64,000 bases of DNA from Escherichia coli (GTDB lineage: Bacteria > Pseudomonadota > Gammaproteobacteria > Enterobacterales > Enterobacteriaceae). Positions 36,101 through 39,100 of the stretch are shown here, piece after piece. How positions within the stretch are numbered: the stretch's first letter is position 1; each line of letters begins with the position of its first letter. A program made the position numbers. Location of the stretch: assembly GCF_013315695.1 (NCBI RefSeq), contig NZ_CP054353.1, one strand, 5' to 3'.

Positions 36101-39100
36101 ATATCTTCTTCTGTCTTGCAACAGAAGAACAGAAAATCGGGCTTTTGCGCCTGAATATTGCGGAGAAAAAGCATGGCCGGGAATGACCGCGAGCCAATTG
36201 GACGCAAAGGGAAACCGACGCGTCCGGTCAAACAAAAGGTAAGCCGTCGTCGTTACGAAGATGACGATGATTACGACGATTATGATGACTATGAGGATGA
36301 AGAACCGATGCCGCGCAAAGGTAAGGGCAAAGGCAAAGGGCGTAAGCCTCGTGGCAAACGCGGCTGGCTATGGCTGCTGCTAAAACTGGCTATCGTTTTT
36401 GCCGTGCTGATCGCCATTTACGGCGTTTATCTCGATCAAAAAATTCGCAGCCGTATTGATGGCAAGGTCTGGCAATTGCCCGCGGCAGTTTATGGTCGAA
36501 TGGTCAACCTTGAGCCAGACATGACCATCAGCAAGAACGAGATGGTGAAGCTGCTGGAGGCGACCCAGTATCGCCAGGTGTCGAAAATGACCCGTCCTGG
36601 TGAGTTTACCGTACAGGCCAACAGCATTGAGATGATCCGCCGTCCGTTTGATTTCCCGGACAGCAAAGAAGGGCAGGTGCGCGCGCGTCTGACCTTTGAT
36701 GGCGATCATCTGGCGACGATCGTCAATATGGAGAACAACCGTCAGTTCGGTTTCTTCCGTCTTGATCCGCGCCTGATCACTATGATCTCTTCACCAAACG
36801 GTGAGCAGCGTCTGTTTGTGCCGCGCAGTGGTTTCCCGGATTTGCTGGTGGATACTTTGCTGGCGACAGAAGACCGTCATTTCTACGAGCATGATGGGAT
36901 CAGTCTCTACTCAATCGGACGTGCGGTGCTGGCAAACCTGACTGCCGGACGCACGGTGCAGGGGGCGAGTACGCTGACGCAACAGTTGGTTAAAAACCTG
37001 TTCCTCTCCAGCGAGCGTTCTTACTGGCGTAAAGCGAACGAAGCCTACATGGCGCTGATCATGGACGCGCGTTACAGCAAAGACCGTATTCTTGAGCTGT
37101 ATATGAACGAGGTGTATCTCGGTCAGAGCGGCGACAACGAAATCCGCGGCTTCCCGCTGGCGAGCTTGTATTACTTTGGTCGCCCGGTAGAAGAGCTAAG
37201 CCTCGATCAGCAGGCGCTGTTAGTCGGTATGGTGAAAGGGGCGTCCATCTACAACCCGTGGCGTAACCCGAAACTGGCGCTGGAGCGACGTAATCTGGTG
37301 CTGCGTCTGCTGCAACAGCAACAGATTATTGATCAAGAACTCTATGACATGTTGAGTGCACGTCCGCTGGGTGTTCAGCCGCGCGGTGGGGTGATCTCTC
37401 CTCAGCCAGCCTTTATGCAACTGGTGCGTCAGGAGCTGCAGGCGAAATTAGGCGATAAGGTAAAAGATCTCTCCGGCGTGAAGATCTTCACTACCTTTGA
37501 CTCGGTGGCCCAGGACGCGGCAGAAAAAGCCGCCGTGGAAGGCATTCCGGCACTGAAAAAACAGCGTAAGTTGAGCGATCTTGAAACTGCGATTGTGGTT
37601 GTTGACCGCTTTAGCGGTGAAGTTCGTGCGATGGTCGGTGGTTCTGAGCCGCAGTTTGCGGGCTACAACCGTGCGATGCAGGCGCGTCGTTCGATTGGTT
37701 CCCTTGCAAAACCAGCGACTTATCTGACTGCCTTAAGCCAGCCGAAAATCTATCGCCTGAACACGTGGATTGCCGATGCGCCCATTGCGCTGCGTCAGCC
37801 GAATGGCCAGGTCTGGTCACCGCAGAACGATGACCGTCGTTATAGCGAAAGTGGCAGAGTGATGCTGGTGGATGCGTTGACCCGTTCGATGAACGTGCCG
37901 ACGGTGAATCTGGGGATGGCGCTGGGGCTGCCTGCGGTTACGGAGACCTGGATTAAACTGGGCGTACCGAAAGATCAGCTGCATCCGGTTCCGGCGATGC
38001 TGCTGGGGGCGTTGAACTTAACGCCAATCGAAGTGGCGCAGGCATTCCAGACTATCGCCAGCGGCGGTAACCGTGCACCGCTTTCTGCGCTGCGTTCGGT
38101 AATTGCGGAAGATGGCAAAGTGCTGTATCAGAGCTTCCCGCAGGCGGAACGCGCGGTTCCGGCGCAGGCGGCGTATCTGACACTATGGACCATGCAGCAG
38201 GTGGTACAACGCGGTACGGGGCGTCAGCTTGGGGCGAAATACCCGAACCTGCATCTGGCAGGGAAAACAGGAACTACCAACAATAACGTAGATACCTGGT
38301 TTGCGGGCATTGACGGCAGCACGGTGACCATCACCTGGGTAGGCCGTGATAACAACCAACCGACCAAACTGTATGGAGCCAGCGGGGCAATGTCGATTTA
38401 TCAGCGTTATCTGGCTAACCAGACGCCAACACCGCTGAATCTTGTTCCGCCAGAAGATATTGCAGATATGGGCGTGGACTACGACGGCAACTTTGTTTGC
38501 AGCGGTGGCATGCGTGTCTTGCCGGTCTGGACCAGCGATCCGCAATCGCTGTGCCAGCAGAGTGAGATGCAGCAGCAGCCGTCAGGCAATCCGTTTGATC
38601 AGTCTTCTCAGCCGCAGCAACAGCCGCAACAGCAACCTGCTCAGCAAGAGCAGAAAGACAGCGACGGTGTAGCCGGTTGGATCAAGGATATGTTTGGTAG
38701 TAATTAACGTCTAAGCGTGACATACCGGATGGCGAGTAGCCATCCGGTAAAATAACATCCCACCCAAAGTATTAACCCTTTCTTTTCATCTGGTTGTTTA
38801 TTAACCCTTCAGGAACGCTCAGATTGCCTACCGCTTGCGAACCCGCCAGCGTTTCGAATATTATCTTATATTTATAATAATCATTCTCGTTTACGTTATC
38901 ATTCACTTTACATCAGAGATATACCAATGGCGCGTTCCAAAACTGCTCAGCCAAAACACTCACTGCGTAAAATCGCAGTTGTAGTAGCCACAGCGGTTAG
39001 CGGCATGTCTGTTTATGCACAGGCAGCGGTTGAACCGAAAGAAGACACTATCACCGTTACCGCTGCACCTGCGCCGCAAGAAAGCGCATGGGGGCCGGCT

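Follow-up and report, generated by a model that had tools for sequence, protein, structure and literature searches.

The low-complexity tails of PBP1b encoded by mrcB in an Escherichia coli genome: composition, natural length variation, internal start and a conserved terminal peptide

The mrcB gene and its product

The DNA considered here, hereafter the window, is a stretch of 64,000 nucleotides (nt) from Escherichia coli (NCBI RefSeq assembly GCF_013315695.1, contig NZ_CP054353.1), whose positions are numbered from its first letter. An open reading frame (ORF) located at 36173..38707 on the plus strand, like all the features described below, translates to a protein of 844 amino acids (aa) followed by a stop codon. 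This is the housekeeping gene mrcB (ponB) of E. coli, which encodes penicillin-binding protein 1b (PBP1b), a bifunctional peptidoglycan synthase that serves as a hub for regulators of the envelope and is one of the major targets of antibiotics. A first examination from the sequence alone (the sequence-only reading) had recognized mrcB and had drawn attention to low-complexity tracts at both ends of the protein, to their possible expansion or contraction across strains and to an in-frame methionine taken as the start of a shorter isoform.

The identity of the gene is supported by equivalog scores, domain architecture, synteny and matches to crystallised chains. The protein scores 1734.8 against the NCBIfam PBP1b equivalog NF007061 (cut-off 1120; residues 1–843) and 1247.6 against the PBP1b equivalog TIGR02071 (cut-off 717.75), the latter match covering residues 68–795 only. 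Its Pfam domains follow one another in the order PBP1_TM (residues 1–79), UB2H (113–197), Transgly (209–379) and Transpeptidase (473–714), which is that of PBP1b. In an alignment of 146 sequences, the catalytic residues of the glycosyltransferase (E233 and E290) and of the transpeptidase (S510) are invariant and the KTG motif (K698, T699 and G700) is nearly so; the catalytic residues of PBP1b are thus all present. Residues 53–804 match the E. coli PBP1b chains found in the PDB with a single different position. The RefSeq annotation of a strain whose sequence shows 100% identity to the window over 36100–38760 gives mrcB exactly the same bounds, within the gene order thpR-hrpB-mrcB-fhuA-fhuC; hrpB also lies upstream of mrcB in other strains. 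PBP1b of E. coli K-12 is the product of the same gene, with the same length of 844 aa and the same neighbours. Its first 76 residues, which include all the N-terminal tracts and Met46, and its C-terminal tract are identical to those encoded by the window, and the two proteins show allelic differences only, such as MRILPVW in K-12 and MRVLPVW in the window near the C-terminus.

Two low-complexity tails around a folded core

The N-terminal tail is made of successive blocks of contrasted charge. It begins with a near-invariant peptide (aa 1–15, 36173..36217) followed by a basic patch (aa 16–27, 36218..36253), residues 1–27 having a net charge of +8. Then comes an acidic D/E/Y tract (aa 28–44, 36254..36304), whose net charge is −13 and whose DNA forms an imperfect tandem repeat of 9/18 bp. 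The in-frame ATG of codon 46 (36308..36310) separates it from a basic KG tract next to the membrane (aa 49–64, 36317..36364), residues 45–64 having a net charge of +10. A transmembrane anchor follows (aa 65–86, 36365..36430); it is included in part in the Pfam PBP1_TM match (aa 1–79) and corresponds to a helix predicted by AlphaFold2 at residues 62–95. The N-terminal tracts all precede this helix and are therefore cytoplasmic, as had been proposed in the sequence-only reading. Beyond the anchor lies the folded periplasmic core, which comprises the UB2H, glycosyltransferase and transpeptidase domains (36509..38314; Pfam matches, PDB chains starting at 53 or 58 and ending at 804, AlphaFold2 confidence score mostly >90). 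The core is followed by a Q/P-rich periplasmic linker (aa 800–828, 38570..38656) and by a terminal peptide (aa 829–844, 38657..38704) that is not Q-rich and forms the true C-terminus.

The composition of the three tracts is highly biased: 17 of 17 residues are D, E or Y in the acidic tract, 16 of 16 are K, G, R or P in the KG tract and 19 of 29 are Q or P in the C-terminal tract, and none of 20,000 shuffles of the protein matched any of these values. The acidic and KG tracts first read from the sequence are thus real, and the range then given for them, 36240..36360, is correct within a few bases. The Q/P-rich tract is real too, but the range of 38570..38680 initially assigned to it extends about 24 nt too far, into the terminal peptide. 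The DNA of the N-terminal tracts consists of imperfect tandem repeats with a period of 9/18 bp at 36253–36300 and of 6 bp at 36315–36339. In the C-terminal tract, Tandem Repeats Finder called no repeat at score 30; the 9-bp units were read by eye and then confirmed from indel alignments. The units that vary in length between strains are, in the acidic tract, GAT (in the run 36260–36271) and the 9-bp GATTACGAC (36269–36277); in the KG tract, GGCAAA, present twice (36326–36337); and in the Q/P linker, the adjacent 9-bp units GCAACAGCC and GCAACAGCA (38617–38634).

Both tails are predicted to be disordered. The AlphaFold2 model, computed from the 146-sequence alignment, has a mean predicted local distance difference test score (pLDDT) of 85.8 and a confidently folded enzyme, with values below 50 at residues 1–60 and 801–832 and a weak helix at 834–841 (pLDDT about 54). 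The PBP1b constructs of the PDB span residues 53/58–804 only, and none of them includes any residue before 53 or past 804. Conservation gives the same picture. In an alignment of 80 Enterobacteriaceae sequences (that of the window and those of 79 species), gapped columns are found only at residues 13–57 and 799–827, with the exception of positions 427, 558–559, 776 and 844. The protein measures 833–853 residues in total, the N-terminal variable region 67–78 and the C-terminal linker 22–33. Composition remains constant while these lengths vary: an acidic stretch with interspersed Tyr, then a basic KG/RK stretch and, at the other end, a Q/P-rich stretch. The N-terminal peptide is near-invariant: the same 13 residues followed by K or R are found in 70 of the 80 sequences, and each of the remaining 10 shows a single difference. 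Only Enterobacteriaceae possess the acidic block; the nearest representative outside this family (P0121) has an EPIG-like N-terminus and a purely basic tail devoid of any acidic block. Taken as a whole, the shuffle test, the low pLDDT, the position of the tails outside all PDB constructs and the confinement of indels to the tails across the 80 species are those of intrinsically disordered tails.

Three metagenome-derived sequences (P0002, P0003 and P0005) combine an E. coli-type N-terminal half with a Klebsiella- or Raoultella-type C-terminal half (e.g. ...QQQLQQQEAKNPFNQSGQQQ...); they are probably assembly chimeras rather than natural recombinants.

Natural length variation of the tracts

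The N-terminal alleles were counted in 5,424 complete E. coli genomes using allele-specific BLAST queries of about 220–228 bp, for which a threshold of at least 99% identity excludes any gap. The length found in the window is by far the commonest (5,088 genomes). One Asp codon (GAT) is lost in 180 genomes, one KG unit (GGCAAA) in 132, both in 11, and the 9-bp GATTACGAC encoding Asp-Tyr-Asp in at most 5; about 8 genomes fall outside these classes. In the alignments, each change corresponds to the neat removal of a single repeat unit. A synthetic query lengthened by 3, 9 and 6 bp, i.e. by an additional copy of each unit, found no genome closer to it than to the window-length allele, so expansion of the N-terminal tracts is unsupported in E. 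coli. In this species, contraction is the only change observed in them, the window having the maximum length.

The C-terminal tract varies in both directions. A loss of 9 bp that changes PQQQPQQQP into PQQQQP is carried by 769 of 5,426 genomes (14%), including strains of sequence type 131 (ST131). This allele was counted with a 64-bp query centred on the junction, as a 94-bp query did not separate the alleles, BLAST extending ungapped matches across the repeat up to position 85 of 94. Gains are rare: an allele with 9 additional bp, designed beforehand as a query, is present in 4 genomes, and alleles with 6, 12 and 15 additional bp are present in one genome each (strains PAR, JNEC-KY172 and elppa5, respectively). 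The 9-bp loss is found on two flanking haplotypes, exemplified by strains H105 and QL57EC, which points to recurrence or recombination. In either tail, the length of every indel is a multiple of three and matches a repeat unit. The expectation that the tracts expand or contract across strains is thus verified for whole-unit, in-frame variation in general, but no expansion was found at the N-terminal end.

It could be objected that such variants are sequencing or assembly errors in low-complexity DNA. The 6-, 12- and 15-bp gains, each known from a single genome, might still be explained in this way. However, the common variants were found in 769, 180 and 132 independent complete genomes obtained by many laboratories; all variants are in frame and correspond to whole repeat units; differences of the same kinds separate species; and the predicted 9-bp gain was found exactly as designed. 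As a general explanation of the length variants, error is thus very improbable.

Another reading would make these tracts hypermutable contingency repeats, in which frequent slippage would make PBP1b switch or diversify in the manner of phase or antigenic variation. The tracts are indeed encoded by repeats, they have several length alleles and, as in the contingency loci of host-adapted pathogens, whole units are inserted or deleted in coding DNA. However, phase-variable simple-sequence loci contain long perfect repeats and undergo frequent changes that often shift the frame, whereas the repeats of mrcB are short (2–4 units), imperfect and broken by the alternation of the synonymous codons GAT/GAC, AAA/AAG and CAG/CAA, and all the indels observed are in frame; mrcB was not retained as a locus of this type. 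Furthermore, diversity is low, one N-terminal length being common to 94% of the genomes, with no expansion allele, and it appears to follow lineages, since the main C-terminal variant includes ST131 strains among its matches and has a distinct flanking haplotype. Finally, PBP1b is a housekeeping enzyme of the inner membrane that is not exposed at the cell surface. Programmed variation of this kind therefore has hardly any credibility here.

The internal start at codon 46

E. coli produces two isoforms of PBP1b, and the shorter one, gamma, initiates at a second start codon, which is removed by the M46L substitution (PMC13423804; Nature Microbiology, 2026). The same paper gives residues 46–60 as gamma's N-terminal peptide, cites Kato et al. 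1984 and Broome-Smith et al. 1985 for the two starts and reports two products of about 94 and 89 kDa in K-12 (legend of its Extended Data Fig. 8). It also demonstrates that the longer tail of the alpha isoform recruits PBP1b to the division site, Arg6 being critical and FtsA being the proposed partner, and refers to Chalut et al. 2001 for the part played by the first six residues (PMC13423804). The tail of 60 residues encoded in the window is identical to the published K-12 tail. The methionine noticed in the sequence-only reading at about 36308 is thus the known start of the shorter isoform: the ATG at 36308 is codon 46, the very position published for gamma, and lies in frame between the acidic and basic tracts.

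This ATG is preceded by a sequence resembling a ribosome-binding site, a Shine-Dalgarno-like GAGGA (36293..36297) located within codons E41-D42, 10 nt before ATG46. As the codons GAG GAT of the acidic tract themselves spell this element, it is a reasonable inference that the acidic tract doubles as the ribosome-binding site of gamma. Among the 80 Enterobacteriaceae, the codon equivalent to Met46 is ATG in 68, GTG in 7 and not a start codon in 5. Of the 68 species that have ATG46, 66 show a Shine-Dalgarno-like core between −15 and −7, and species that lack the first GAGGA have a second one at −9. In addition, Glu41 is encoded by GAG in 86% of the species that keep this residue, and GAG represents 5.5% of the Glu codons that precede Asp or Glu elsewhere in the gene. 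These observations give only moderate support to selection acting specifically on the Shine-Dalgarno-like element of gamma.

Met46 is replaced by Val in seven species (L041, L043–L046, L054 and L057, which include Klebsiella pneumoniae); in each of them, the codon is GTG and a Shine-Dalgarno-like element is still present upstream. Such a codon could preserve initiation, but it is equally a one-step mutation from ATG, and no conclusion is drawn from it.

Proposed organization of the tails

The explanation favoured here, with a probability of about 0.88, is that the three tracts are parts of two intrinsically disordered, slightly length-variable tails that surround a folded enzyme, and that the internal methionine is the known gamma start. 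Under this explanation, the cytoplasmic tail would be read, from its end to the membrane, as a recruitment peptide, a basic patch, an acidic D/E/Y spacer and a KG-rich basic stretch beside the anchor. The near-invariant N-terminal peptide would be the recruitment signal of the alpha isoform demonstrated by others, acting probably through FtsA. The acidic block would hold this peptide at a distance from the membrane while carrying the signals of the internal start, so that gamma, initiated at ATG46, would retain only the membrane-adjacent basic stretch. The location of the KG stretch beside the anchor would fit a positive-inside arrangement. On the other side of the membrane, the Q/P tract would be a flexible tether between the transpeptidase domain and the 16-residue terminal peptide.

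The length alleles would arise when short imperfect direct repeats misalign during replication, which would remove or add whole in-frame units. Such indels would be tolerated because the tracts act through their composition and flexibility and not through a fixed fold. The alternation of synonymous codons and the low number of units would keep misalignment rare, hence a locus that is variable and not hypervariable.

Several points weigh against parts of this explanation. The five species without any start codon at the position of Met46 (two Kluyvera, two Pseudescherichia-like and one Kosakonia) establish that the dual start is not universal. The GAG enrichment at Glu41 is not specific to the ribosome-binding site, as 43% of the Glu codons that precede Asp or Glu early in the acidic tract are also GAG, and the six-codon segment 40–45 comes no higher than 65th among 736 when such segments are ordered by synonymous conservation. 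The production of both isoforms by the strain of the window is predicted from its sequence by reference to K-12. The roles of spacer and linker are deduced from composition, disorder and tolerance to indels, and slippage is deduced from the shape of the indels.

The acidic tract might also be more than a spacer, i.e. a specific interaction or regulatory element in which changes of length have functional consequences. It could, for example, fold back as an electrostatic clamp onto the basic blocks on either side, bind a basic partner or undergo modification of its tyrosines. The succession of charge blocks (+8, −13 and +10) would suit such an element, as would the restriction of the tract to Enterobacteriaceae and the presence, every 3–4 positions, of aromatic or hydrophobic residues that nearly all 80 species retain amid acidic residues that vary. 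However, neither a partner nor a modification is known, PMC13423804 does not discuss the tract and contains neither the word "acidic" nor the word "linker", the length of the tract differs both between strains and between species, and AlphaFold2 gives it no structure. A role of this kind, which would be compatible with the organization proposed above, is therefore considered unlikely.

The conserved C-terminal peptide

The Q-rich tract is a linker and not the terminus of PBP1b, which ends with the conserved 16-residue peptide. An 11-residue core (or GVAGWIKEMFG, one D/E position being variable) is found in 79 of the 80 Enterobacteriaceae species. More distant relatives were surveyed through 138 full-length representatives of PBP1b-family clusters (50% identity clusters), which are 32–64% identical to the query. 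A motif made of two hydrophobic residues, two of any kind, one hydrophobic residue and Phe, or of W, one hydrophobic residue, two of any kind and two hydrophobic ones, is found within the last 14 residues of 52 of them (38%), for instance in SWWQRLFN, NWLERVFGF and SWYESLFGS. The background is much lower: 1.4% for internal windows and, for shuffled tails, about 1 in 138. The majority consensus of the 146-sequence alignment still ends with W-x-x-x-x-F. The linker that precedes the motif usually measures about 12 residues in the distant relatives; in E. coli it reaches about 41 residues and is Q-rich. The terminal peptide lies outside every solved structure, since residue 804 is the last one of the constructs that were crystallised, and the literature search retrieved no relevant paper on a C-terminal peptide or tail of PBP1b.

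These data might mean that the terminal peptide is the conserved element of the C-terminal tail, a short linear motif that the Q-rich tract merely tethers. The near-invariance of its core in Enterobacteriaceae, the frequency of the motif in distant relatives compared with internal windows and shuffled tails, the W-x-x-x-x-F consensus end and the helix modelled at 834–841 favour this view. By contrast, the pLDDT of this helix is only about 54, its hydrophobic moment only reaches about the 90th percentile for the protein, constructs that end at 804 crystallised and the strict motif is not found in 62% of the distant representatives. The proposal is compatible with the disordered-tail organization and can be held tentatively, with the odds somewhat against it. 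A more precise version, rather doubtful at this stage, would have the Q tract act as a length-tolerant tether for a functional peptide that docks on a periplasmic partner, on the enzyme or on the membrane and thereby regulates the synthase, similar motifs being found across Proteobacteria.

Low-molecular-weight PBPs such as PBP5/DacA end with a C-terminal amphipathic helix that anchors them to the membrane. In both PBP5/DacA and PBP1b, a hydrophobic or aromatic peptide terminates a periplasmic penicillin-binding protein after a flexible segment. However, the peptide of PBP1b is much shorter (about 8–10 residues) and its hydrophobic moment is moderate, and PBP1b already possesses a transmembrane anchor, so that the likeness would be a resemblance and not membership of the same class. 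Given the value of the hydrophobic moment, a membrane-anchoring amphipathic helix is not claimed for PBP1b.

Relation to known biology

For E. coli, this gene, the disordered tails of its product and the two isoforms belong to textbook knowledge. The alpha and gamma starts come from work by others, as does the role of the tail of alpha, which the 2026 paper has already explained; the identity, the coordinates, the alleles with their counts, the conservation pattern and the predicted disorder come from the present analysis. What is added to this knowledge is the census of alleles and the conserved peptide at the terminus only. The census indicates that both tails change length naturally by in-frame units that do not disable the gene and shows which lengths are tolerated. 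The peptide, which is cut from all structural constructs, may be new; it is a lead only, and the one element that might repay experiment. The retention of the second start and of its Shine-Dalgarno-like element in most, but not all, Enterobacteriaceae is a descriptive addition.

In Gram-positive bacteria, the GpsB-binding tails of class A PBPs (PMC13423804) are also disordered cytoplasmic N-terminal extensions involved in recruitment to the division site. By their description, however, they differ from the tail of PBP1b in their partner, FtsA being the one proposed in E. coli, and share with it neither sequence similarity, nor an acidic tract, nor an internal second start.

Gene boundaries and distribution of the allele

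The ORF delimited mechanically begins at a TTG located five codons upstream of the annotated start (36158–36172; MRRKSMAGN...), and some of the JGI gene calls for orthologues in Enterobacter (P0037 and P0054) use an equivalent upstream start. The RefSeq annotation and the spacing of a Shine-Dalgarno sequence read as GGAG (36162..36165), 7 nt before ATG 36173, favour this ATG as the start of alpha.

The mrcB allele of the window is uncommon. Over the 2,661 bp of 36100–38760, only 8 of the 5,424 complete E. coli genomes show at least 99% identity, the others showing 95–99%. Strain SMS-3-5 is among the matches listed at about 98.9% identity to this region, and the first 228 bp of mrcB are identical in IAI39. 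Among the 5,424 mrcB matches, three are to records that bear the label of plasmids, and 2 of 5,426 genomes gave no match; these cases may correspond to mislabelled replicons or incomplete assemblies.

A scan of 35900–38950 for promoters and terminators gave nothing above the expectation from shuffled sequences. A perfect 11-bp inverted repeat (TACCGGATGGC / GCCATCCGGTA) with a 5-nt loop is located at 38723..38749, 16 nt past the mrcB stop codon. It was not called as a terminator by the consensus scan, no T run following the repeat, and is possibly a hairpin at the end of the transcript. The sequence directly past the mrcB stop codon differs from that of the window in H105 and Ec-91, two strains with the 9-bp C-terminal loss.

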